Of a stretch of DNA of 64,000 nucleotides, positions 5,106 through 36,204 are shown one piece after another; the first letter of the stretch is position 1, and each line of letters starts with the position of its first letter. Made by a program: the position numbers and the translations under genes. Under the pieces are notes generated by a model. That model ran no database searches. It was not told the DNA's origin and worked only from the letters and a program-made list of their open reading frames with translations. The stretch is from a virus (Duplodnaviria > Heunggongvirae > Uroviricota > Caudoviricetes), in the IMG/VR virus record IMGVR_UViG_3300033485_000006, positions 25,402 to 89,401 of that record; one strand, given 5' to 3'.

Positions 5106-6074
5106 TCATCGTTTATTTCTAACTCTACTTGTAACTTTACTCGTAGTTTCTTCTGAGAATTTATATAAAGTTTTTGTATGTTCAATAAGTATATCATATA
5201 TAGATACCTTTTTCTTAACCATCTGTTTAATTTCGACTTCCTCATTTGTCTCATCTATAACTAATTTAGGGACTAACTCGCAGGTAACCTGTGGATGCCG
5301 TATGAGTTTGCTAAATTCATCTAGTAAATCAGTGATTGTAACCTTATATAAGTTATCGTCATCTAATGTTTTAACCCATTGGTTATGCTCTTGTATACTA
5401 GAAAAACTTTTAATATCTTTGTACGGTAACTCTTCTCTATGCCTAGTAACTTCTAGTGTCTCAGTATCTACTACGAGCCAACCATTAGTCTTCTTATATT
5501 TTGTGTAATGATTATGCGTGGGTTCAGAGGTATACCAGATATTTTCATATGGTTTATGCGGACTATGAATATCACCAAGAACTACTAACTTAAACTTCTC
5601 TGATAATTCCTTAAAGTTAATCTCTTCAATAATATATGGTGGTATTGTACACCTAGCATGGGTAAATAGTAGGTTACATTTAGTAGTGTGTATTTGGTTA
5701 TGTGTGAATCCAACGATATTACTCCAACCAACAAATACTATATTATCTATCTCTGTAATACCTTCATAATACTTAAAGTCTTTTTCTGGTAGAAATTTAA
5801 ATGTGGTTGAATCATGATTACCATCAATTATAATAATATTGGTGAAGTGTTCTGATAGGTCGTGAATAAACCCATAGAATAATTTTATTTCTTTTAGGGA
5901 TGGATTATTTTTATCGAAGACATCTCCAAGTAGATACAATGAGAATATATTTGGATGTTTTGTTTTTAATGCAGTGGAGAGTTTTGAAAGCCTATTTGTT
6001 TCAAATACTAATTGATTACTTACTTTAATATGTAGGTCACCAAGGCATATAGCCTTAGATGCACTAGTAGACAT
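5106..6074 (-). CDS. SbcD/Mre11-like recombination nuclease (T4 gp47-like)
   Basis: Metallophosphoesterase motifs CLGDLH, LLGDVFD and IIDGNHD, with an SbcC-like ATPase nearby. Confidence 0.75.
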   Translation of the reverse strand: MSTSASKAICLGDLHIKVSNQLVFETNRLSKLSTALKTKHPNIFSLYLLGDVFDKNNPSLKEIKLFYGFIHDLSEHFTNIIIIDGNHDSTTFKFLPEKDFKYYEGITEIDNIVFVGWSNIVGFTHNQIHTTKCNLLFTHARCTIPPYIIEEINFKELSEKFKLVVLGDIHSPHKPYENIWYTSEPTHNHYTKYKKTNGWLVVDTETLEVTRHREELPYKDIKSFSSIQEHNQWVKTLDDDNLYKVTITDLLDEFSKLIRHPQVTCELVPKLVIDETNEEVEIKQMVKKKVSIYDILIEHTKTLYKFSEETTSKVTSRVRNKR

Positions 6075-6655
6075 TAGTCAACCCAATCTTCAGTTGCTCC
6101 TGTAGTATTGGTATCATCAGCAGAGAATGTACCCTCATCTTCGTAACCATCAAAGGCGTCAGCTCCGTAGTTTGGTACATCAATGATTTTAATTCCATTC
6201 AAACGAAGAACGATACCTTTATACATACCAGAACTCACAATCTCTACACCAACCTGTAGACGAATCTTACTACGATTTGGGATAGCTGAGATACTATCAA
6301 ACTTTACAGGTTTACCAGCACTATCAAATAGATTTGGTGGATATTTAATTGAGGTCTTAGCCTTAATAATCATATCTCCTGTAGGATTCCCTTCACGGTC
6401 TACAGATTCTTTTACAGGCCATGCTGCTTTATCAAATGGTAAAACCATTTTAGTGCCATCAGCTTGTGCTTTCTCGTATAGAGCTTTTACCTCAGTTTGG
6501 AATGCAGTAAATTCATCAGCAGTGATAATAAGACTTGTTTCATACTTATTCTCATCATACTGAGATGCATTTGGTACTGAACAGTATAGTGCTGAGCCAA
6601 CTACTGTTACGATTCTGCCTAATTTGTTTGATTCAATTTTTGGTGCTGTTGCCAT
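6074..6655 (-). CDS. putative ssDNA-binding protein
   Basis: 193 aa with a strongly acidic C-terminal tail ending DEGTFSADDTNTTGATEDWVD (SSB-like). Located inside the recombination-nuclease cluster. No direct fold evidence. Confidence 0.3.
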   Translation of the reverse strand: MATAPKIESNKLGRIVTVVGSALYCSVPNASQYDENKYETSLIITADEFTAFQTEVKALYEKAQADGTKMVLPFDKAAWPVKESVDREGNPTGDMIIKAKTSIKYPPNLFDSAGKPVKFDSISAIPNRSKIRLQVGVEIVSSGMYKGIVLRLNGIKIIDVPNYGADAFDGYEDEGTFSADDTNTTGATEDWVD

Positions 6656-6809
6656 TTGTTATTTCCTTTGCCCTACTGGGACTTATAAATTTTATCAACC
6701 AGAAGTTTAACTTCAACTTATTTTTATCAACCTTAACTTAAACCTTAATAACTACAACATACCTCTCCTTTTCTTGAGTATACACATTATACCTGAAGTA
6801 ACCTTAAAT

Positions 6810-7466
6810 CTAGCTTAAAATAGCTTTTTGGTATTCAATAAATGGTAATGGGTACTCTTCTCGTATACTCTCGTATAGCTCTTGTTTAAGTACATAATAT
6901 ATAGTACTACCAGTTCGTAGTATCTCCCAATCTTTATACCTAAAATTAAATGGTTTATCAATAAACTTTTTAAAGTTTAGATAAGTAATAGGTACAATAA
7001 AATTCTCTCTTCTAAACTCAGTGTACTCTATAAGTTCTTGTACACATCTCCAGCAGAGTTCCTTTGTACTTACTACACCACATAATGAACATGTAGTTGT
7101 CCATGCGCTTACTCTAGATGTAACCTTGAGTGTTACAGGAGTATACCCTAAGACTTCCTGCAGTTTATCCCTAGTAGTTTGTGGTATGATATTAGAAGCT
7201 AATAGGAATATTACATAGTACATCTCTGATGGAATTGTTAAGAAATACACGGCACATATGATATTATCTAGAGTACCTTTATATGAATACTTAGTTGGAC
7301 CAATAGATACCTTATCCTTATTATCTAGTATTGCTTTTCTAGTATCTGGATTATGAGTGTAACTAAGGACTAACTTAATATCTTTATATGTGTACCCAAG
7401 ATTAAATAGGATATTATATCGTTCTTTTATAGATGACTCTTCTAATAACTGTAGGTATTCTATCAT
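6810..7466 (-). CDS. hypothetical protein with CxxC...CWRC zinc-binding motif
   Basis: 218 aa ORF with a 4-nt overlap to the upstream gene. Contains Cys pairs CSLCG...CWRC. Confidence 0.45.
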   Translation of the reverse strand: MIEYLQLLEESSIKERYNILFNLGYTYKDIKLVLSYTHNPDTRKAILDNKDKVSIGPTKYSYKGTLDNIICAVYFLTIPSEMYYVIFLLASNIIPQTTRDKLQEVLGYTPVTLKVTSRVSAWTTTCSLCGVVSTKELCWRCVQELIEYTEFRRENFIVPITYLNFKKFIDKPFNFRYKDWEILRTGSTIYYVLKQELYESIREEYPLPFIEYQKAILS

Positions 7467-12006: not shown

Positions 12007-13251
12007 TTATATACTCATCACAAAATTGAATTGCATCGTAGCAAACTTTTTCTCGAATAATAGTTGTGCTCTTGGGCCATTTCTATTTTTCATAATATAA
12101 ATAACTGCAGCATCACAGTCACCCTCCTCATCAGTCTCTGGGCTGTATATAAATAATACTAGGGTCGCACTAAAGAATAATTCAGAACTCCCTCTAGTAG
12201 TAATCTCTGGATACTTACCTTGTTTTGGTGCTTTATCCACATTTACCTGACTAGCAGATACAGTAACTACCCCAAGAGACATTGATAGTCTGTGTAGTGC
12301 TCTTGCAGTATCACTAAGCGCTTGCCAACCACCAACAGAACCCTTAGCTGGCATAACAAGATTTAGGTAGTCAAGAACAACTACATCTAAATCAAATAGA
12401 CTCTTTTCAACTTTAATTAGGTTGAGTAGTTCTAAGTTATCTAGTGGGTCTGTAACAATTCGGAATACATTCTCACGATTCTTAAAGTCAGCCATAGCAT
12501 CAGCTATACGTTTCTTCTCATCATCTGTGAGTAACCCTTTATTGACTTGGTTGAATGGAATGCCTGTTAGGAATGACTTTAGGCGATTACCAAGAGTCTG
12601 TGCTGAAAGTTCCAAGGATACAAATAGGATATTCTTGCCTTGTAGGTACATGCCAATTGCCATTTGTAATAGGAGAATTGACTTACCACCACCCGAAGTA
12701 CCTGATACAATTGTAAGTCCAGCTACACCTTCAATATGTTCATCCAGCTCTTTAATACCACTAGATATTAAAGAGGAGCTATCCTCCATTTCCATAGCAT
12801 CCATAAAGTTTGTAGGTCTAACAGAATCTAGGTTGATTTCCTCAATTAGACTATTAAGTACTCCGCGAACACCTTGTACATCCTTTAGCATAGCGCAATT
12901 ATTTAATTCTTGAACTTTAGAATCCATAGTTAACAATAGGTGTTTATCTTTAAGACCACTTAAGATTTGATTAATGTCTACTCCGAGTAAATCAACTCGT
13001 TCCATAGTGCCTAGGATTGCATTTAGTTGTGGTTTGATATTTGTTGGTGCTTTATCATTAATAATTGATTCAACAATGCGCATACTAGGTAACTTATGGC
13101 TAGTTGAAAATTCTTTATTAATCAGTTTAAATATCTGGCTATATTGATTAGAGAATAAATCTGGGTGTAACCCAAGGAATAATTCTTGGTCACCCTCACG
13201 AATTAGTTTTGATAGTGCAAGTAACTCATAATTAATCTTTGGTTGTGTCAT
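12007..13251 (-). CDS. replicative DNA helicase (DnaB family)
   Basis: Walker A (SGTSGGGKS), Walker B (VVVLDYL) and the RecA-like C-terminal domain layout of DnaB/gp41 helicases. Confidence 0.75.
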   Translation of the reverse strand: MTQPKINYELLALSKLIREGDQELFLGLHPDLFSNQYSQIFKLINKEFSTSHKLPSMRIVESIINDKAPTNIKPQLNAILGTMERVDLLGVDINQILSGLKDKHLLLTMDSKVQELNNCAMLKDVQGVRGVLNSLIEEINLDSVRPTNFMDAMEMEDSSSLISSGIKELDEHIEGVAGLTIVSGTSGGGKSILLLQMAIGMYLQGKNILFVSLELSAQTLGNRLKSFLTGIPFNQVNKGLLTDDEKKRIADAMADFKNRENVFRIVTDPLDNLELLNLIKVEKSLFDLDVVVLDYLNLVMPAKGSVGGWQALSDTARALHRLSMSLGVVTVSASQVNVDKAPKQGKYPEITTRGSSELFFSATLVLFIYSPETDEEGDCDAAVIYIMKNRNGPRAQLLFEKKFATMQFNFVMSI

Positions 13252-13642: not shown

Positions 13643-14389
13643 TTAAGCTTTGGTTGCCCGTGGCTTATTCTTTGGTTTTTCTTTTACTGGAAGTTTTGAT
13701 TTAAGAATTGTTAATTGTTTCTCTAGGTATTCCACATGGTCAGCTAAATGTTCTGCCTCTGCTTCATCAACTAGTTTTTCTCGTTGTTCTTTCACAAGTG
13801 ACCAACGCGCCATAGTTTCATCTGCATCAAAGTATAGGTCACCACCTTTGATTACTTCTTCAATTTCATCGTTACTTAGAAAATACTTATAAGTTTCCTC
13901 AATTAATTTACGAGATTGTTTAAGAATAAACTCAACGGATGCTTTAGCTTCATGCATCTTACCACCACTACCAAAACTCACTGAATGTACCATAAACATA
14001 CTATGGTCTGTCATAATAATCTCATCACAGTTAAGAGCAATAATAGTAGCTGCACTCGCAGCTGTATCAGTAATAATTGCTGTGCATACTGCAGCTGTAC
14101 TATTAATACCAGTGATAATCATTTGAGCACCAGATAGGTAACCCCCACCATTATCAATAATAAAATTTATATTATCATTGTCAGTTAGTGCTAGTGCAAT
14201 TTCCATATACTCATGGTATTCACTAGAAGATTCAATACCTTCAGTTAAATAATAGTTTACTGTAATTGTTTCCCCAAAGATAACATATAGTCCTTTATTA
14301 TTACAACGTTCTCTTACCATAGCATCTGTATGGTAAGCCTCTAGTGTATTATTTACATCACCACCAAACATATTATCATGTTTACTCAT
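13643..14389 (-). CDS. ClpP/S14-family serine protease-like protein
   Basis: TDTAASAATIIALNCDE resembles the ClpP active-site Ser region (GxAASMG). A downstream His (MVHSV) and Gly-rich turns fit the ClpP fold. 248 aa. Confidence 0.55.
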   Translation of the reverse strand: MSKHDNMFGGDVNNTLEAYHTDAMVRERCNNKGLYVIFGETITVNYYLTEGIESSSEYHEYMEIALALTDNDNINFIIDNGGGYLSGAQMIITGINSTAAVCTAIITDTAASAATIIALNCDEIIMTDHSMFMVHSVSFGSGGKMHEAKASVEFILKQSRKLIEETYKYFLSNDEIEEVIKGGDLYFDADETMARWSLVKEQREKLVDEAEAEHLADHVEYLEKQLTILKSKLPVKEKPKNKPRATKA

Positions 14390-16782
14390 TTGTGTCCTTT
14401 TGAAAATATATTCTCTGCGAATTCTGTTAGTCTTCCTCTAACAACCTTAGTTAGTTTAGCACCAAATAATTTTACATTTGGGTATTCTTTCTTTAGCGCA
14501 CCAAGTAACACTGCAAGACTAGTAGTATACTTATTTAGGTACGCATTGTCAATCTGGCGACTAGACCCAATAGCGATTACCATACAACCCTCACCAATAC
14601 GTGTAAGTGCTGTTTGCGCTGAGCTAGGTGAGAAGTTTTGTGCCTCATCCATAATGATGATAGAGTCAGTTAACGTCCTTCCACGTAGTCCAAGAGTTGT
14701 TATTGGTTTGATATTATAGCTCTTCATGAGTTCTTCTAGTTTTTCCTCTACAGCTAACTCAAGGTCCTCTGCCTTCATCTTCTTATTACTGAGATGTTTT
14801 CTCACCATGATTCTCAGGGTATCATATAATGGTGCAAAGAATGGTGCGAACTTTTCATCAGAGTTATGCGTCACAATATAGTCATCTGTAAGATATAGGC
14901 CGTCCTGGTTGTCTAATGTAATACACTGCACCTCGTCATCACGAACATACTCTACACTTTTAATCATCCTTGGTCTACCAATGCGTGCTGCCTTGTAATT
15001 AGTAGCTTTACGTTGTAGCTTTGCTAAGTTAAAGTGTGGGGAGTCTATCTGAACAATATATTGAATATGGTTGCAGTTACATTGTATACCTAAAATCTCT
15101 GTTAAGCCGATTCTATCCCTTGTAGAAATTCTTGCAATACCGCCAATTGAGTGGACTAAGTCTTTAACATCACTGGATAATACACTAGATGAAGTGTAGA
15201 ATATTATCTCTCCTGATGGTCTAATAGAGCCATCAGAGTCTATCATACCCCTCAAAAGTTCCACTCTAGTATTCAGTGTAGCTACCTTGTAGCTTTCAGG
15301 TATAAATTTAGTTTCTGCTTTTTTATATTGAAGACCTAGCATAGTTAAGGCCTCTTTAAGCTTATTCGTGTGGCCTCTTCCATTAATACCTGATATAGTG
15401 TATAATACATTTTTATCTGAAGAACGGTTTATAGCGCACCCAATATCTTTTAAGGTACTAGCTATATTATTAATAATCTCTTCACTATCAGAATTTCCTA
15501 GAGCTAACCTGACGTGACTTCCTGATAAGCTACCATCTCCAATTAGTAATCCTAATAGGTATGGGTCAACTAAAGGCTCACTATAATCAAATTCTACTGG
15601 TAGGTTCTTCGGTAGTTTATGACGTAAAGCCCCCCATTTAGTAATAGTAGACATAATTTCTGCAGTGCTTCTAAGTTTTGTAACTTTATCTCTTGTAGTT
15701 TCCCATAAGTGGTCCTCAGAACATTCAGTTACGCCCCCATCGGTAGTAGTTACTCTATACACTTTTTTAGTGCCTTGTGGTGTTACATGCTTTACTGTTG
15801 AGTATTCCCCAGTATTAGTTATAACTAAGTCCCCAACAGCAATATCACCCATCACTACCCAACCAGTAGGTGTAAGTATCTTGGCAGTTAAAGGCTGTGG
15901 CCCAGGTAAAAAACCAACCTCTTCATTACGTTCTAAGTTATGAACAGTATTCCTAAGATAATATATACCAGAATACTTCTTAGCCCTTACAAGCTTCATA
16001 GCAGAAGATATAGCAGCAAAGGATTTACCTGAACCAGCCAAGGCATCACAAATAATAAAGTCATAATTCTGTGATAGTATAGCTGCTGAGTACACAAGTT
16101 GTTCTAGGTTCCGTGGGCTTGCCTCTTGCTTTCTTACTTCATCCTCATCAATAGACTCAAGTTTCCCATTGTTAACCAAGAATACCGATTGGTTACCATC
16201 AGTTGATGTGATATGGTATGCATAGTTTTCTTGCGTATGAGTTGGGTTAATACTAATAACTTCCTTAAGCTCCAACTCTTGAAACACTTCTGGGTCAACT
16301 GTTAGGTACACTAATGGTTCTATATTAATGTCCTCTTGCTCCCTAACAAAGTCTACCTTAATACCCCGAGTTAATGCAAGAAATCTACAGTTAGTATCAT
16401 TGCTAATAAATGTAACATCCATAGAGCTATTATGGATATCCTCGGCTATCTCAATAATTTTTAAGTCATTCTTCTCATCTTTATATTCTTTCTTAGAGAC
16501 TAACATAAGAGTTACTTCAAACTCGCCTGTATCATACTTAGCATGAATAGTGGTTCTATCTTCCTGTCTATCAACACTTACTAAACGTGCATCTGATAGC
16601 ATACCAGAGGTTCTCCTAGCATGAAAACCTATCTCTTCCATTAATGTTTTCTTAGAATCAAGTTCTTGTATAACAGTATCTGGAATAACTATTACCTTAC
16701 TACCAGAATTACTAAGTGTATATAGGTTAGTTGAATCTAATAGTAGTATATTTGTGTCCAACACTAGGTATTCATTTTGCAT
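14386..16782 (-). CDS. phoH: PIN-PhoH (YlaK-like) ATPase interrupted by an intein
   Basis: N-terminal PIN (LVLDTNILL), Walker A (DALAGSGKS) and PhoH motif GFLPG. An insert of about 340 aa carries two LAGLIDADG motifs and ends ...VTHN|S. The extein then resumes with DEKFAPFFAPLYD and Walker B (IIIMDEAQNF). Confidence 0.8.
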   Translation of the reverse strand: MQNEYLVLDTNILLLDSTNLYTLSNSGSKVIVIPDTVIQELDSKKTLMEEIGFHARRTSGMLSDARLVSVDRQEDRTTIHAKYDTGEFEVTLMLVSKKEYKDEKNDLKIIEIAEDIHNSSMDVTFISNDTNCRFLALTRGIKVDFVREQEDINIEPLVYLTVDPEVFQELELKEVISINPTHTQENYAYHITSTDGNQSVFLVNNGKLESIDEDEVRKQEASPRNLEQLVYSAAILSQNYDFIICDALAGSGKSFAAISSAMKLVRAKKYSGIYYLRNTVHNLERNEEVGFLPGPQPLTAKILTPTGWVVMGDIAVGDLVITNTGEYSTVKHVTPQGTKKVYRVTTTDGGVTECSEDHLWETTRDKVTKLRSTAEIMSTITKWGALRHKLPKNLPVEFDYSEPLVDPYLLGLLIGDGSLSGSHVRLALGNSDSEEIINNIASTLKDIGCAINRSSDKNVLYTISGINGRGHTNKLKEALTMLGLQYKKAETKFIPESYKVATLNTRVELLRGMIDSDGSIRPSGEIIFYTSSSVLSSDVKDLVHSIGGIARISTRDRIGLTEILGIQCNCNHIQYIVQIDSPHFNLAKLQRKATNYKAARIGRPRMIKSVEYVRDDEVQCITLDNQDGLYLTDDYIVTHNSDEKFAPFFAPLYDTLRIMVRKHLSNKKMKAEDLELAVEEKLEELMKSYNIKPITTLGLRGRTLTDSIIIMDEAQNFSPSSAQTALTRIGEGCMVIAIGSSRQIDNAYLNKYTTSLAVLLGALKKEYPNVKLFGAKLTKVVRGRLTEFAENIFSKGHK
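14863..15885 (-). mobile_element. intein with LAGLIDADG homing endonuclease domain inside the PhoH-like gene
   Basis: Hint N-block-like ILTPTGWVVMGDIAVGDLV. LAGLIDADG motifs LLGLLIGDGSL and LLRGMIDSDGSI about 100 aa apart. C-terminal splice block IVTHN followed by Ser. The upstream boundary is uncertain by a few codons. Confidence 0.7.
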
Positions 16783-16950: not shown

Positions 16951-17217
16951 CTAGTCGTCCTTTACTGTTTTCTCAAGGTAAAACTTTTGGGCTTTAACTC
17001 GGTATGTTCTAAGATGGTTTTTACTTGGTTCCATCCAATCTTTTCCTTCGGTAGATTGTTTAATAAGCTCACCTAACTTATGAACTGACCATAAGCTAAA
17101 CTGATTCATGGTTAAAGTCTTTTTAAGGCGGTTTAGCTCCGCCTTTGTCATATCCCATAATTCTTCATCGCTATAACGTACTGTACTCATATTAATCACC
17201 CATGACAAGATAAACAT
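16951..17217 (-). CDS. hypothetical protein (88 aa)
   Basis: ORF overlapping the start of the NrdA-like gene. No motif. Confidence 0.35.
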   Translation of the reverse strand: MFILSWVINMSTVRYSDEELWDMTKAELNRLKKTLTMNQFSLWSVHKLGELIKQSTEGKDWMEPSKNHLRTYRVKAQKFYLEKTVKDD

Positions 17218-18932
17218 TCTGAATTATCAACTTTATATGTTGATGGTTCATTTAGACTATGTACATAATATAGTGACTGCACATAATCATCCTCAAAAGC
17301 TATATTATGAATTCTAGAAATATCTTCTTCTGTCGCCTCCATTGGAAAGTATAAGTTTAATGACTGACCTTGTCCACCACCACCTTCATTCATAATACGC
17401 TGTCGATGTGACGCCATTAGAATGATAGACTCTTGTGGTAATTCAAATGCTGTTCTGAATACTAATTTCTCTTGGTCTGATAACCAATCCTCACCTTGAA
17501 CTGAACCTTGAGCTTCTGATATACGAGACATAACTTCTTCATTATACATACCACGTTCTTTCATAATAGGTAGAAGCACTGGGTTAATACGATAGACTAA
17601 ACCACCAGCTGTCTCTTGTTCATATACGTTAGCATACACTGGCATAATACCCTCAGATACCCCACCAACGATAATTGCAGTTGACTTAGTAGGAGGTAAA
17701 GCTAGACGATGTGAATTACGTAAATTGTAACCTTGCATCCATTCTGGTTCGCCTAATTCTTTTGCAAGTAATTTGGAAGCAATTAAGGATTCCTTATCCA
17801 TCTCTTTCATTAATTGTTGGTTAAATAGGATTGAACTCATATCACCAAATGCCCACATATTCTGTTGGTAGTATGTTGATAACCCTAGGATACCAAGACC
17901 TAGTGCTCGTGATTTCTCCGTGAAGGCAATAATCTTATCAAAGCCCTCCTCCTGTTTAGCTTTAATCAACATATCCTCAACAACTGCATCCAAGAATATA
18001 GTTGCTAGTTGTATTACATACGTACTTTTCCATTCATTATATTTAGAAACATTTAATGATGATAGGACACAAGTGAATGAGTGATTCTCATCTGACATTA
18101 GGTTTATCTCAGCACATAGATTAGAATGTCTAACAAAGAATCCTCTGTCTTTATACATTTGTGGTCTAGCACGATTAACCTTATCAACAAAATACATATA
18201 ACCTTTTCCAGGGGTCATACGTGTCTTTAACATACGCTTCCAAATACGGTCTGCTTCTTGTGAGTCACGATTAAATAATTCAGCATACTCATCAGTGATA
18301 TTCCAACCAACATTCCATCCATCGTGGTCAGCTATTAATTGGTCTACTAACTCATCAAAGTCAGGATGCATCGGGTCTAAGTATTGTCCTACAGAACCTC
18401 TACGTGAATTCTGTGATACATCTTTCATATCTTGGACTACACCAGCCGCTGGTTGCATGATACCGTTAGCAGTACCACCTCTTGATACAAGAGAACCTCT
18501 CGCACGCACTGGATCTAATCCCCAAGACGTACCATAACCACGTTGAGTTAATTGAGCGATTTCCATTCGAGCTTGGTAGAAGGAACGAATGGAATCCCCT
18601 AAGTATGTACCAGAACATGCGATTGGGTGTCCTCTTGAATTACCCATATTAGTTAATACTGGGGTAGATGGGGACAGCCATCCTTTCCACATAATATCAA
18701 AGAAGGCGTTATCCCATGAGTCATACCCAAAGTAACTAGGGATTTCAAAAGTAGTTAATTCTGCGGCACGTTTAGCAATACGTGAATACATATCTTTTGG
18801 TGTTTCAGCAGTATTCAAATAGTTTTGGTTGAGTAATAATTGGTAACTTGCTGTACTCATCCAGTCAGGAGCTAGATTATCTGCTTGTAATTGTTTTCGT
18901 TTATATGATAGTTGTTCGTATTTATTTTCCAT
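17196..18932 (-). CDS. nrdA: ribonucleoside-diphosphate reductase large subunit (class I, no ATP-cone)
   Basis: Active-site motif HSNLCAEI, a C-terminal CxxC (CLSCHG), and NrdB directly upstream. 578 aa, so the N-terminal ATP-cone is absent. Confidence 0.7.
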   Translation of the reverse strand: MENKYEQLSYKRKQLQADNLAPDWMSTASYQLLLNQNYLNTAETPKDMYSRIAKRAAELTTFEIPSYFGYDSWDNAFFDIMWKGWLSPSTPVLTNMGNSRGHPIACSGTYLGDSIRSFYQARMEIAQLTQRGYGTSWGLDPVRARGSLVSRGGTANGIMQPAAGVVQDMKDVSQNSRRGSVGQYLDPMHPDFDELVDQLIADHDGWNVGWNITDEYAELFNRDSQEADRIWKRMLKTRMTPGKGYMYFVDKVNRARPQMYKDRGFFVRHSNLCAEINLMSDENHSFTCVLSSLNVSKYNEWKSTYVIQLATIFLDAVVEDMLIKAKQEEGFDKIIAFTEKSRALGLGILGLSTYYQQNMWAFGDMSSILFNQQLMKEMDKESLIASKLLAKELGEPEWMQGYNLRNSHRLALPPTKSTAIIVGGVSEGIMPVYANVYEQETAGGLVYRINPVLLPIMKERGMYNEEVMSRISEAQGSVQGEDWLSDQEKLVFRTAFELPQESIILMASHRQRIMNEGGGGQGQSLNLYFPMEATEEDISRIHNIAFEDDYVQSLYYVHSLNEPSTYKVDNSECLSCHG

Positions 18933-25357: not shown

Positions 25358-26185
25358 TTAATTCCCAATCTCAAAATATTTAATAGTTTTACTCTTCGAC
25401 TCACTTGGATAACCAAGAGGGTTAGCTAATAGGTTAACCCCAATAAAATCAAAGTCTTCTACTACGTGTGTATGACCATAAATCCATGTCTTAAGTCTAG
25501 AGTCATTAGCGATATTCTCCTCAAAGTCGAATGAATAGAACGCATTAGTCATATCATTTTGATACATTGGAGAAAAGAATTTATTGTCTACTACAGGCTT
25601 CATATGAGTTACCATAATATCACAAGAATCCTTTAGAAGTTTAAGTTTATCCTTCTCTTGCTTTGCATATTCCCAAAAGTCGTCCATCTTCATGTACTTT
25701 GAGTCATTCATAGTACGCTTCCAATATCCTTGCAGTCCTCCATCAGACTGGTAATAACCAGAAGCCATCCTGTAATAAATAGTACCATCGTAGAAACTAT
25801 TTGCTCCACCTATAGTTAAACCATTTGGTAGCGCATACTTAGTCCCATCAAGTACTTTAACCCAATTCTCTAGGAATAAGTCTTGCTGATAAGCAATCTT
25901 ATGTAAACCAGTTGGGAACATACTGCGTTGCTTATCATTTACTAGGTATCCTTCATGATTTCCTAGTACTATAAATATGTCTTTAATATTATATTTACCC
26001 CTGATAATATCCATAAATTCCATGGACTGCTCTGGGTAGTGCCCAAGATCCCCAGCTATAATTAGGTACTCAGAATCCATACTATCAAAGTATTTACTAA
26101 AAGCTTTATCAAAAAGTAGTTTTGAGCACTGAGCATCTCTCATATAAAAATCTATATGTAAATCTGAAGTGTACGCTATCTTCAT
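25358..26185 (-). CDS. calcineurin-like metallophosphoesterase
   Basis: Motifs SDLHID, IIAGDLGH, LGNHEG and GHTHV. Adjacent to the RNA ligase. Confidence 0.65.
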   Translation of the reverse strand: MKIAYTSDLHIDFYMRDAQCSKLLFDKAFSKYFDSMDSEYLIIAGDLGHYPEQSMEFMDIIRGKYNIKDIFIVLGNHEGYLVNDKQRSMFPTGLHKIAYQQDLFLENWVKVLDGTKYALPNGLTIGGANSFYDGTIYYRMASGYYQSDGGLQGYWKRTMNDSKYMKMDDFWEYAKQEKDKLKLLKDSCDIMVTHMKPVVDNKFFSPMYQNDMTNAFYSFDFEENIANDSRLKTWIYGHTHVVEDFDFIGVNLLANPLGYPSESKSKTIKYFEIGN

Positions 26186-30626: not shown

Positions 30627-31808
30627 TTAAGCTTCATTTATTAGCTCCTTTAGTAGATTTAATTTTTCTCTATAAACTTTTTGTTTGATTTGCTCAGTAG
30701 TTAATCCTGAACAATCAGTTTTGTGTTTTGTGATAGTATACCACATATTTCTAATATCTAACTGAGAATACACAAAAGGTTTCTTAATACCGTAACGACC
30801 AAGCATATCCGCATAGACTGCTTCTAATACATAACTAAGGAATTTACCATCACGAATACCGAGTAGTAACTTAAGAAATTTCTTAGAGCCTGTGTGACCA
30901 TCTATGACATTCTGCCAACGGTGATGATTTAGGGCTACATACTCAGCAACTTTAAATTCTTCTGATGAGAAACCGTAAGTAGTCCTCATGGTTTCAAATG
31001 CTGGTTTAACCCATTGTTCATCTGAGTGACCATGAAATGTACCAATAGTTTGCTTACATGGTACTTTACCAATATCATGAAATAGTGCTGCAATCTTAGC
31101 AACCTGAGTTTCGCATTGGTCAACTACAAGCATAGTATGGTTAAATACTGAACCTTCCATGTGATATGGGTTGTCATGTTCCATAGATTTCATCTTATAA
31201 ATCTCTGGGAAGAAATCATTAAGAACATTGAGTTCATCCAAGGCTCTAAAGAATACTGAGGGTTTGTCAGATGCTAATACCTTAACCAACTCTTTGTAGA
31301 CTCTTTCTTTTGGCATCGAAGTATATAATAACTTCATATCATTAGCGTATTCTTTAAGTTCATTACTAATAACCCAATGTCCACCAAGTGTACACTTAAG
31401 GCGAGCGGCCCTTAGTACTCTAAGTGGGTCTTCTTTAAATGCTTCTGACACTGGTCTAAGTACTCCTTCAGCCAAATCTTTACATCCACCATAAGGGTCT
31501 ATAAGATTGTCTTCTAAATCCATGGCTATCGCATTGATAGTTAAATCCCTACGCAATAGGTCTTGCTCTAGAGTCACATCATTAGTACCAACTACAAACT
31601 TATCTCCTGATAACCTTTCTTGCCTAGCTAGAGCGTACTCATCGCTAGACTCAGGGTGTAGAAATACTGGGAAATCTCTACCAACCTGAGTGTATCCTAG
31701 TGACAGCATTTCTTCTACTGAAGAACCAACTACAACATAGTCTAGGTCACTAGGAGTTTTGCCTAGGAGCTTATCTCGGATGGCCCCACCAACCCTATAT
31801 ACTTCCAT
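30627..31808 (-). CDS. tRNA nucleotidyltransferase (CCA-adding enzyme) with HD domain
   Basis: Pol-beta-type head motif GGAIRDKLLGKTPSDLDYVV, RDLTINA, and the HD motif FHDIGK. Confidence 0.75.
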   Translation of the reverse strand: MEVYRVGGAIRDKLLGKTPSDLDYVVVGSSVEEMLSLGYTQVGRDFPVFLHPESSDEYALARQERLSGDKFVVGTNDVTLEQDLLRRDLTINAIAMDLEDNLIDPYGGCKDLAEGVLRPVSEAFKEDPLRVLRAARLKCTLGGHWVISNELKEYANDMKLLYTSMPKERVYKELVKVLASDKPSVFFRALDELNVLNDFFPEIYKMKSMEHDNPYHMEGSVFNHTMLVVDQCETQVAKIAALFHDIGKVPCKQTIGTFHGHSDEQWVKPAFETMRTTYGFSSEEFKVAEYVALNHHRWQNVIDGHTGSKKFLKLLLGIRDGKFLSYVLEAVYADMLGRYGIKKPFVYSQLDIRNMWYTITKHKTDCSGLTTEQIKQKVYREKLNLLKELINEA

Positions 31809-33133: not shown

Positions 33134-33477
33134 CTATTCTCCAATACCCATTGGCAAGCTTTAAATACTGCTTCTGGTTCAGTATCTGCTTCAATCCATT
33201 GATACTCACAACCATTATTTGAAACTGCCTGAGCACATGGAGTATTATCACCCATCCAACTATTTGTTGAAGTAATACTAAACCCAGCAGTTAATGCCCA
33301 CGCTTTACATTTATGTGTAAGTTCGTAGATATTGATTTCACTGTTATCTACTCGGACATACTCACTCCATGTGACGTCATATTCATATTTATAATGTATG
33401 AGATTATATGTATCTTCAAAATAACACTCAGAGCAATCACACCCAAGAACTTCACTCAACAATTCATTGCTTATCAT
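33130..33477 (-). CDS. hypothetical protein (115 aa)
   Basis: ORF only. Confidence 0.35.
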   Translation of the reverse strand: MISNELLSEVLGCDCSECYFEDTYNLIHYKYEYDVTWSEYVRVDNSEINIYELTHKCKAWALTAGFSITSTNSWMGDNTPCAQAVSNNGCEYQWIEADTEPEAVFKACQWVLENR

Positions 33478-34852
33478 AAATCAATCCTTTAATTTTATCC
33501 ATAACTTCATGTGGTTTACACATAGTTACACCATGAGTTGTCTCTTGGTATAACTTCCAGCGTTTCTTTGCGGAGTACTCGAGGTTACCAGAAATTCTAA
33601 AATCAATCCATAAAGGGGATTGTGTAGTCTTCCATTCTATGAAACGTTTAAGCCTTCCCTTCTGTTGTTCAAGTAACTCCTCGGAGGAACTATTTGGCAT
33701 CAGTCGGATACCTATGGATAACTCTGGAATACTTATACCAGCAGATAATGGTGCGCTACCTATAAGTATATTCATTCTATCTAAATGGATAGCTTCAAGT
33801 ATTACCTGACGCTTCTTCTGTGAGGTTGTACCTCGGATAATACCTACAGTTAACCCTTGAGCTACTAGTAGCTCTTCCAATTTATCCTGAACAGCATTTA
33901 GGTCAGCTATAATCCAGAACGTACCTTTAACATTATTTTCCTTTAGCTCACGACACATTCTAGCGATATCTGAAGGAATACTAGAGCGTAGTATAAATTT
34001 ACCAAGAGATGTTTTATACATATTGGTATTTCCTGGAGATTGCCATGTTAGATGTGAATAATCTAGGAATAGGTGCCGTGAATGAATAACAGTTTCAGTT
34101 GGTTGTTCCATCTCAACAACCTTATTACCAAATAAGTAATTAAGTCCCTGAGTTTGCTTCATCAAATCTTTAGTTGGTGTTGCAGTAAGATACAACTGAT
34201 ACTGTGGCATAAGCGTAAATAACACTTTAAGCCTACTAGAAGTAAAACTATTATCAGCTTCGTCAACTATAACCATACCATAGTATGCCTTACAACTATC
34301 AAGTAGTTTTTTAGAACTATTAAGTAGTTGAAAGGTTGCAATGGCAACATCTGGTAGTTGTTTATCATGGTCGGATGCTTCAAGTATTTTTATGGAGGCG
34401 TCTGGAAGATTCTTAGTCATCTCCTTAAACATTTGTGTCGATAACATAGTTAGATGAGAGAGGATTAAAGTTCGTCTATGTACACCAACTAGAACACCAG
34501 CAAGACTAGTAGTCTTACCAGAACCTGTACCAGCACTTAATAATAACTGCCCATAATCATTACCAGCTAGATGGGTAATAATTTCGCCTACAGCAACCTC
34601 TTGGTAATCCCTGAGGTTATAACTTTGGGCTGTCTCAAAGTCACAATGTGATTTAATTAACTTTGAAGAATCGACTTCATCAGTTAATGGATAACCTCGA
34701 GGAATTACAAGGTATTCAGGACTAATGAAGTATGCAATGAAGTTTTTATTTGGTTCGAAGGGATTGATAAAGGTAAGATTATTTATAATCCCTTGTAATT
34801 TATGGTGGTCTTTAGGGACTTTAAGTGCACCACTAGCGACTATTGAACCCAT
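33464..34852 (-). CDS. SF2 DEAD/DEAH-box helicase (UvsW/Res-subunit-like)
   Basis: Walker A (SAGTGSGKTT), DEAD box (VIVDEADN) and helicase C-terminal motifs (QKGRLKR). Confidence 0.65.
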   Translation of the reverse strand: MGSIVASGALKVPKDHHKLQGIINNLTFINPFEPNKNFIAYFISPEYLVIPRGYPLTDEVDSSKLIKSHCDFETAQSYNLRDYQEVAVGEIITHLAGNDYGQLLLSAGTGSGKTTSLAGVLVGVHRRTLILSHLTMLSTQMFKEMTKNLPDASIKILEASDHDKQLPDVAIATFQLLNSSKKLLDSCKAYYGMVIVDEADNSFTSSRLKVLFTLMPQYQLYLTATPTKDLMKQTQGLNYLFGNKVVEMEQPTETVIHSRHLFLDYSHLTWQSPGNTNMYKTSLGKFILRSSIPSDIARMCRELKENNVKGTFWIIADLNAVQDKLEELLVAQGLTVGIIRGTTSQKKRQVILEAIHLDRMNILIGSAPLSAGISIPELSIGIRLMPNSSSEELLEQQKGRLKRFIEWKTTQSPLWIDFRISGNLEYSAKKRWKLYQETTHGVTMCKPHEVMDKIKGLIYDKQ

Positions 34853-36119: not shown

Positions 36120-36204
36120 TGGCGGATAGTATAGGATTCGAACCTATAAGAGTGTTACCTCGACAGATTAGCAATCTGCTCACTTACCATTAGTGTAACT
36201 ATCC
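36120..36204 (-). tRNA. tRNA-Ser (anticodon GCU), type II with long variable arm
   Basis: The minus strand reads GGATAGT TA CAC-TAATGGTAA-GTG A GCAGA-TTGCTAA-TCTGT ... ATAGG-TTCGAAT-CCTAT ACTATCC G CCA. It has a 7-bp acceptor, a 3-bp D stem and an encoded CCA. Confidence 0.75.

Follow-up and report, generated by a model that had tools for sequence, protein, structure and literature searches.

A probable class 3 intein beginning with proline in the GFLPG motif of a phage PIN-PhoH ATPase

How does an intein splice if its first residue carries no nucleophile? The question is raised by a phoH-like gene in a 64,000-nucleotide (nt) stretch of DNA, hereafter the window, from an uncultured phage of the Caudoviricetes (IMG/VR record IMGVR_UViG_3300033485_000006, positions 25,402 to 89,401). 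A preliminary description of this stretch, made from the sequence alone, had reported that a PIN-PhoH ATPase contains a LAGLIDADG intein whose N-terminal junction is non-canonical, and Pfam, the motifs and the homologs bear this out. The insert is very probably a full-length class 3 intein, consisting of a HINT splicing domain and a LAGLIDADG homing endonuclease, located in the GFLPG motif of the phage PIN-PhoH protein. The odd N-terminal junction is real yet already explained, because inteins of class 3 rely on a cysteine located internally. Such inteins have been recognised since 2009-2010 and their prototype itself begins with Pro1. The preliminary description did not recognise the mechanism as a known one, and the finding is less unusual than it had assumed.

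The interrupted gene lies on the minus strand and its parts are as follows, with residues numbered along the precursor.
14386 to 16782, minus strand: gene for the PIN-PhoH (PhoH2-like) ATPase precursor, 798 residues, 89.3 kDa, stop codon included (open reading frame list and Pfam)
15901 to 16782, minus strand: N-extein, residues 1-294, with the PIN domain, Walker A GSGKS (250-254), GFLPG at its end and Gly294 as residue -1
14863 to 15900, minus strand: probable class 3 intein, residues P295-N640, 346 residues, 38.2 kDa, 1038 nt, a HINT splicing domain with an inserted double-motif LAGLIDADG endonuclease
15898 to 15900, minus strand: intein residue 1, Pro295 (codon CCA), the non-nucleophilic residue at block A:1
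14389 to 14862, minus strand: C-extein, residues 641-798, starting with Ser641 (+1, codon TCT), then DEKFAPFFAPLYD, and carrying Walker B IIIMDEAQN

Both domains of a PIN-PhoH (PhoH2-type) ATPase are found above their Pfam thresholds, namely an N-terminal PIN domain (PIN_4, residues 6-143, E 7e-17, 62.4 bits against a cut-off of 21.9) and a C-terminal PhoH P-loop domain (E 1.5e-34, 119.7 bits against a cut-off of 27). The PhoH match is split in two, its second part running from residue 641 to 792 (profile positions 72-203). The interruption is located, as had been described, between GFLPG (290-294) and a downstream conserved block, SDEKFAPFFAPLYD (from residue 641), with the SDEKFAP motif at residues 641-647, and it separates Walker A from Walker B within the conserved PhoH core.

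The edges of the insert were fixed with alleles that lack it. When the protein database was queried with the extein joined in silico, PIN-PhoH proteins without an intein were found; they have 450-452 residues and up to 87% identity to the extein. The two closest, P0031 (87%) and P0032 (85%), read GFLPG/ADEKFAPFFAPLYD, where the slash marks the splice or insertion site, or in a wider view ...LERNEEVGFLPG/ADEKFAPFFAPLYDTLRIM... (NEEVGFLPG/ADEKF), and the window protein is collinear with them only once P295-N640 is taken out. Since these homologs fix the junction, residue 1 is Pro295 and residue +1 is Ser641, and the alignment places no Cys, Ser or Thr at position 1. For the DNA, the junction was drawn from the boundaries of blastn high-scoring segment pairs and from an extein-only alignment. 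An intein-free allele is found on a syntenic contig, L003, which carries ribonucleotide reductase (RNR), PIN-PhoH and a ClpP-like gene. This allele matches nt 10-881 and 1924-2397 of the window coding sequence, and the 346 codons at nt 883-1920 are without counterpart in it. Its insertion site reads ...TTTTTACCAGGA/GCAGATGAGAAG..., and over the part of the contig that covers the allele (6001-7353) it is given by ...GGCTTTTTACCAGGA/GCAGATGAGAAGTTTGC.... The element is thus an in-frame insertion at a conserved host site, with collinear intein-free homologs, as expected for an intein. At +1 the window gene encodes Ser and its nearest intein-free alleles encode Ala, which would be anticipated were a nucleophile needed there. 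The coordinates proposed earlier, 14863-15885, are exact at the C-terminal edge, where VTHN occupies residues 637-640, N640 lies at nt 14863-14865 and the predicted VTHN/S junction is found. At the N-terminal edge they started at Ala300, five residues or 15 nt short of the true position 15900, and the insert, estimated at about 340 residues, has 346. Ala, Thr and Pro had all been considered for position 1, of which the intein-free homologs support Pro and speak against the other two.

An intein is assigned to class 3 (Tori et al. 2010, PMC2807308) if residue 1 lacks a nucleophile, in co-variation with Trp B:12, Cys F:4 and Thr G:5 (the WCT triplet), and if Ser or Thr, rarely Cys, stands at +1. 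In this class Cys F:4 cannot be dispensed with, and splicing passes through a thiol-labile branched intermediate at block F. The Hint-like N-terminal block reported for the insert gives a weak Hint_2 match in Pfam (E 0.024), but phmmer aligns the splicing domain with inteins in the PDB at E values of 5e-14 to 4e-8. The matches are a WCT-engineered variant of gp41-1 (6riz, 5e-14), native gp41-1 (6qaz, 7e-12) and, at 4e-9 to 4e-8, the class 3 DnaB inteins of Mycobacterium chimaera (MchDnaB1; 6rix, 6riy) and M. smegmatis (MsmDnaB1; 6bs8). In these alignments HLW of the window intein pairs with HQW of MchDnaB1 and MsmDnaB1, and VQC...VTHN with their VRC...PTHN. Blocks A, B, F and G occur in the order found in inteins, with H358, H639 and N640 followed by S641. 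The blocks beyond the N-terminal residue are located as follows.
15703 to 15720, minus strand: block B core, SEDHLW (355-360), with Ser B:7, His358 (B:10) and Trp360 (B:12, the W of the WCT triplet)
14863 to 14931, minus strand: blocks F and G, VQCITLDNQDGLYLTDDYIVTHN (618-640), with Cys620 (F:4, the predicted initiating nucleophile), Ile621, Tyr630 (F:15), Thr638 (G:5), His639 (G:6) and Asn640 (G:7)

All three class 3 features are therefore present, namely Pro295 at position 1, the W360/C620/T638 triplet and Ser641 at +1, and the signature is complete: Pro1, Ser B:7, His B:10, Trp B:12, Cys F:4, Ile F:5, Tyr F:15, Thr G:5, His G:6, Asn G:7 and Ser+1. With Pro at position 1, the Cys, Ser or Thr of class 1 inteins is lacking. 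The WCT triplet and the phage PIN-PhoH host set the insert apart from class 2, the KlbA inteins with Ala1.

The class 3 prototype is the intein of Mycobacterium phage Bethlehem (MP-Be), whose first residue is Pro1. It splices in vivo and cannot do so at all without Cys F:4; His B:10, Trp B:12, Ile F:5 and an aromatic F:15 are needed as well, and the loss of His F:13 is tolerated, the H328A substitution being without effect on splicing (PMC2807308). The MP-Be endonuclease is active (PMC5050341). We located this intein in Bethlehem gp11 (AY500153; L002, 7260-9971), with the flanks VSQDQ/P...HN/TKNTF as published; tblastn and a motif search of Bethlehem at 30-52 kb, near the annotated DnaB-like gene, did not find it there. 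GenBank labels gp11 'hypothetical protein', and the annotated DnaB-like helicase is gp62, which is not the intein host; the host gene has been treated as a terminase large subunit, TerL1-c (Kelley et al. 2016). The window intein and MP-Be are 28% identical (BLASTP, E 2e-29) from Pro1-Pro1 through Asn346-Asn341, endonuclease domain included, a full-length likeness that, as judged by sequence, is far beyond chance. Numbered from the first residue of each intein, the signature positions correspond as follows.
B:7: S61 in the window intein, S62 in MP-Be
B:10: H64 in the window intein, H65 in MP-Be
B:12: W66 in the window intein, W67 in MP-Be
F:4: C326 in the window intein, C320 in MP-Be
F:5: I327 in the window intein, I321 in MP-Be
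F:15: Y336 in the window intein, F330 in MP-Be
G:5: T344 in the window intein, T339 in MP-Be
G:6: H345 in the window intein, H340 in MP-Be
G:7: N346 in the window intein, N341 in MP-Be
Pro295 stands opposite residue 1, with no offset, in the BLASTP alignment to MP-Be as well as in the phmmer alignments to gp41-1, MchDnaB1 and MsmDnaB1.

The second part of the insert is an endonuclease domain. Two LAGLIDADG motifs about 100 residues apart had been predicted, and a spacing of 100 residues is indeed found between them.
15529 to 15558, minus strand: LAGLIDADG motif 1, LLGLLIGDGS (409-418), acidic residue Asp416
15226 to 15258, minus strand: LAGLIDADG motif 2, LLRGMIDSDGS (509-519), acidic residue Asp517
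The reading frame is intact, the acidic residues D416 and D517 are kept, and Pfam reports LAGLIDADG_3 at residues 507-555 (E 9e-8). A model of the intein was built with AlphaFold2 from a 23-row family alignment and reached a mean predicted local distance difference test score of 91.4 and a predicted template modelling score of 0.90. The top Foldseek match of this model in the PDB is PI-SceI (E 1.7e-18, template modelling (TM) score 0.69-0.72), followed by the VMA, PI-PfuI and PI-PkoII inteins; TliVMA, MchDnaB1 and MsmDnaB1 are matched as well, the class 3 mini-inteins 6riy and 6bs8 with a target-normalised TM score of 0.81. I-DmoI is matched by the endonuclease domain. According to the model, the insert has the HINT fold. 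Motifs, Pfam and Foldseek together give the structure of a double-motif LAGLIDADG enzyme, with two helices, each with an acidic residue, in a PI-SceI/I-DmoI-like fold.

The same residues are conserved in the wider family. With the intein as query, 30 relatives of 28-42% identity were found in the database, and conservation was counted in 24 full-length members, MP-Be included. His B:10, Trp B:12 and Cys F:4 are invariant (24/24), Tyr or Phe occupies F:15 in 24/24, and Thr G:5 is found in 22/24. Residue 1 is Ala in 12, Pro in 8, Ser in 4 and Cys in none, while +1 is Thr in 21 and Ser in 2. The acidic residue of LAGLIDADG motif 1 is Asp in 21/24 and that of motif 2 in 22/24. A scan of IMG/VR yielded at least 559 relatives. 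Both ends could be resolved in 77 of these, which repeat the pattern of the 24 members, all with Thr or Ser at +1 (77/77) and 49/77 with Ala as residue 1; 62/77 follow Lys, mostly in P-loop GK/ contexts. Within our sample, Pro1 mostly follows Gly-1 and Ala1 mostly follows Lys-1 or Arg-1. Two further positions can be mentioned here. Block F:13 (G628, 14899-14901) is Gly where most relatives have His, which turns DHLY into DGLY; Gly is also found at this position in P0005 and several viral relatives. Cys354 (block B:6, 15721-15723), directly before B:7, is kept in 18/24 relatives and in gp41-1 (CSE[ED]HL), and many relatives have Cys-Cys in the B:6 region; its role may be structural or redox-related.

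The boundaries, the homology, the conservation of the signature residues and the fold are established by these comparisons, and characterised homologs (PMC2807308, PMC5222942, PMC7664689) suggest the chemistry as well as the splicing and endonuclease activities. The gene would be translated as an 89.3-kDa precursor, which folds (all masses were computed from the sequence). Because Pro295 cannot start splicing, Cys620 of block F is predicted to do so. Positioned by His358 and Trp360, it would attack the Gly294-Pro295 peptide bond, and the N-extein would be held on Cys620 as a block F thioester branch before being transferred to the side chain of Ser641 (+1). Cyclisation of Asn640 would then free the 38.2-kDa intein, and an O-to-N shift would leave an intact PIN-PhoH protein of 51.0 kDa reading ...GFLPG-SDEKF..., with the predicted ligated junction peptide ...EEVGFLPGSDEKFAPFFAPLYDTLR. 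The freed intein is probably a homing endonuclease that would cut intein-free phoH alleles in co-infection and copy itself in, a candidate substrate being the L003 allele at its insertion site. The atypical splicing mechanism suggested earlier thus finds its counterpart in class 3. The GFLPG/ site of PhoH could in addition be uncatalogued for class 3 inteins and splicing there be conditional, Cys620 acting as a redox or zinc switch (a behaviour reported of the class 3 MsmDnaB1 intein) that gates the PIN-PhoH ribonuclease/ATPase post-translationally during infection, but we consider this extension doubtful.

Several points weigh against an active class 3 intein. Both the splicing reaction and its branched intermediate at block F are deduced from sequence, and endonuclease activity is predicted from motif conservation. 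The closest database relative of the window intein is only 37-39% identical, because of which recent selection on the window copy is not measurable. The WCT triplet grafted onto the related class 1 intein gp41-1 gave C-terminal cleavage and not splicing (PMC7664689); hence, the WCT signature alone is no proof of activity. F:13 is Gly and not the His of most relatives, which is offset by the harmless H328A substitution in the prototype. The low identity of the nearest relatives (below 40%), the gp41-1 result and Gly at F:13, with the missing N-terminal nucleophile, would also suit a degenerate, splicing-dead intein. The phage would then produce PhoH as an interrupted 89-kDa protein, which would either have no function or be tolerated. 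The preliminary description had allowed for an inactive intein, and we regard it as unlikely. All residues essential in the prototype (His B:10, Trp B:12, Cys F:4, Ile F:5 and the aromatic residue at F:15) are kept, as are Thr G:5, the His-Asn pair and the +1 nucleophile. A non-splicing insert that splits the core would probably inactivate phoH, which is otherwise 87% identical to its intein-free homologs. Likewise, the frame and both LAGLIDADG motifs are intact, and +1 is Ser against the Ala of the intein-free alleles.

Very unlikely, in turn, is a class 2-like route of the KlbA Ala1 type, which had also been proposed earlier and in which Ser641 would attack Gly294-Pro295 directly, without a block F thioester. 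It would suit a non-nucleophilic residue 1, and inteins with the class 3 signature could in principle take either route until Cys F:4 was mutated (Tori and Perler, PMC5222942). However, the known class 2 inteins are archaeal KlbA orthologs without the WCT triplet that the window intein possesses, and the window intein is homologous from end to end to inteins that cannot do without Cys F:4, this residue being invariant in 24/24 relatives. A standard class 1 intein whose N-terminal edge has been misplaced, for instance starting at Thr299, four residues downstream of Pro295 (PQPLTAKIL), with PQPL in the N-extein, can be set aside, since it would leave a four-residue PQPL insertion in GFLPG-xDEK relative to the 87%-identical homologs, sister inteins at GK/T and RGR/T start with the equivalent A-Q-P-L, and the gp41-1, MchDnaB1 and MP-Be alignments put Pro295 opposite residue 1.

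For the class 3 intein, its history in the gene was also considered. A co-conversion tract was sought by comparison with L003, and none was seen: identity in 60-nt windows beside the insertion site is 73-88%, compared with 77.5% over the gene as a whole. There is therefore no sign of recent homing from the L003 lineage. The intein and the extein have similar GC contents (37.8% and 36.5%, respectively). The insertion into phoH is probably old, because flanking identity to L003 is not elevated and the GC content of the intein matches that of the extein. Further copies of the intein were not found in the window by tblastn.

Related inteins occupy the same site as well as others. The GFLPG/ site of PhoH is also occupied in P0001, P0003, P0004, P0012 and P0014, always by an intein with Pro1 after Gly-1. 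Relatives at other sites are found in PhoH at MRGR/T and at the Walker A motif GK/T, in a GroEL-like protein at AGDG/TTT, and in terminase, RecA and a PD-(D/E)XK protein; the MRGR/ site is also that of an actinobacterial-looking relative (P0026). At the GK/T and RGR/T sites the extein is unambiguous and the intein starts with A-Q-P-L, the counterpart of P-Q-P-L in the window. A sister class 3 intein lies at the Walker A motif (GSGK/AQPL...THN/T) of P0040, a PIN-PhoH protein 67-71% identical to the window extein. Another is found at Walker A of the PIN-PhoH protein of Vibrio phage 1.161.O (MG592529.1, NVP1161O_150; L007, 304-2751), whose gene is annotated only as 'hedgehog/hint domain protein'. 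A Pro1 intein of the same clade is present at AGDG/TTT, which resembles the GroEL/Cpn60 ATP-binding loop, in P0013 and in four IMG/VR contigs (L054, L058, L064 and L087). The distribution over different sites points to separate invasions of the PIN-PhoH family. Altogether, at least three phoH sites and several further ATPase genes of phages carry the clade [A/P]QPL...DHLW...QCI...THN/T. This multi-site spread fits a published proposal that class 3 inteins arose in phages, whose ATPases commonly contain them.

The window does not come from a sequenced isolate. A megablast search of the gene against 50,697 phage records gave zero matches, and the nearest isolates by protein are Campylobacter CP220-like phages and Vibrio phages (35-40% identity). 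The neighbourhood of phoH (window 12007-34852, minus strand) is a phage replication and nucleotide-metabolism module with the following genes.
12007 to 13251, minus strand: DnaB-like helicase
13643 to 14389, minus strand: ClpP/S49-like protease open reading frame, with a 4-nt overlap with the phoH stop
17196 to 18932, minus strand: RNR large subunit, by synteny with L003
26656 to 29208, minus strand: family A DNA polymerase
30627 to 31808, minus strand: CCA-adding/poly(A) polymerase-like enzyme
33464 to 34852, minus strand: SNF2/ResIII helicase
The sole tRNA gene of the window, tRNA-Ser(GCT), lies at 36120-36204 on the minus strand.

The main value of these results is the correct annotation of the gene, which should be described as a PIN-PhoH precursor with a class 3 intein/homing endonuclease; neither 'fusion' nor 'hint domain protein' is the right label. 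They also add one more class 3 intein with Pro1, located in the GFLPG motif of the PIN-PhoH protein of a phage. The puzzle of the N-terminal junction is resolved by an established mechanism, and the finding does not raise a new mechanistic question. Divergent, naturally Pro1-tolerant class 3 inteins may serve protein engineering. Class 3 inteins in PhoH and in phages have already been published: an alignment of class 3 PhoH inteins from M. fortuitum (OBK00716) and M. xenopi (EID13626) has appeared (PMC6195587), PhoH is listed as an intein host with 21 cases (Novikova et al., PMC4760082), and phage PhoH inteins have been reported in Campylobacter phage IBB_35 (PMC3322345). Novelty may be limited to the co-occurrence of three features: a class 3 intein with Pro1, its GFLPG/ site and a PIN-PhoH host from an uncultured phage.

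Among the known systems, MP-Be resembles the window intein in its Pro1, its length (341 against 346 residues), its HINT domain with a double-motif LAGLIDADG endonuclease and its phage origin. Both share Ser B:7, His B:10, Trp B:12, Cys F:4, Ile F:5, an aromatic F:15, Thr-His-Asn and a hydroxyl residue at +1. MP-Be differs in its host, a terminase large subunit and not PIN-PhoH, and in having Gln at -1 (Gly in the window), Thr at +1 (Ser in the window) and His at F:13 (Gly in the window); both its splicing and its endonuclease have been shown to be active (PMC2807308, PMC5050341), whereas these activities of the window intein are predicted. The mycobacterial class 3 inteins, that is MsmDnaB1 (6bs8), MchDnaB1 (6rix, 6riy) and the PhoH inteins of M. 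fortuitum and M. xenopi (Kelley et al. 2018, PMC6195587), have the WCT triplet, a non-nucleophilic residue 1 and the THN C-terminus in common with the window intein. However, they come from bacteria, have Ala1 as their first residue and mostly lack an endonuclease, being mini-inteins. The best PDB sequence match, the cyanophage-like and naturally split gp41-1 (6qaz), shares CSE[ED]HL in block B and the THN C-terminus, but it is a class 1 intein with Cys1, Phe B:12 and Asp F:4, and it is split and without an endonuclease. Finally, PI-SceI (yeast VMA1) and other LAGLIDADG-containing inteins have the same two-domain fold as the window intein, although PI-SceI is eukaryotic, belongs to class 1 (Cys1, Cys+1) and is about 16% identical to it.

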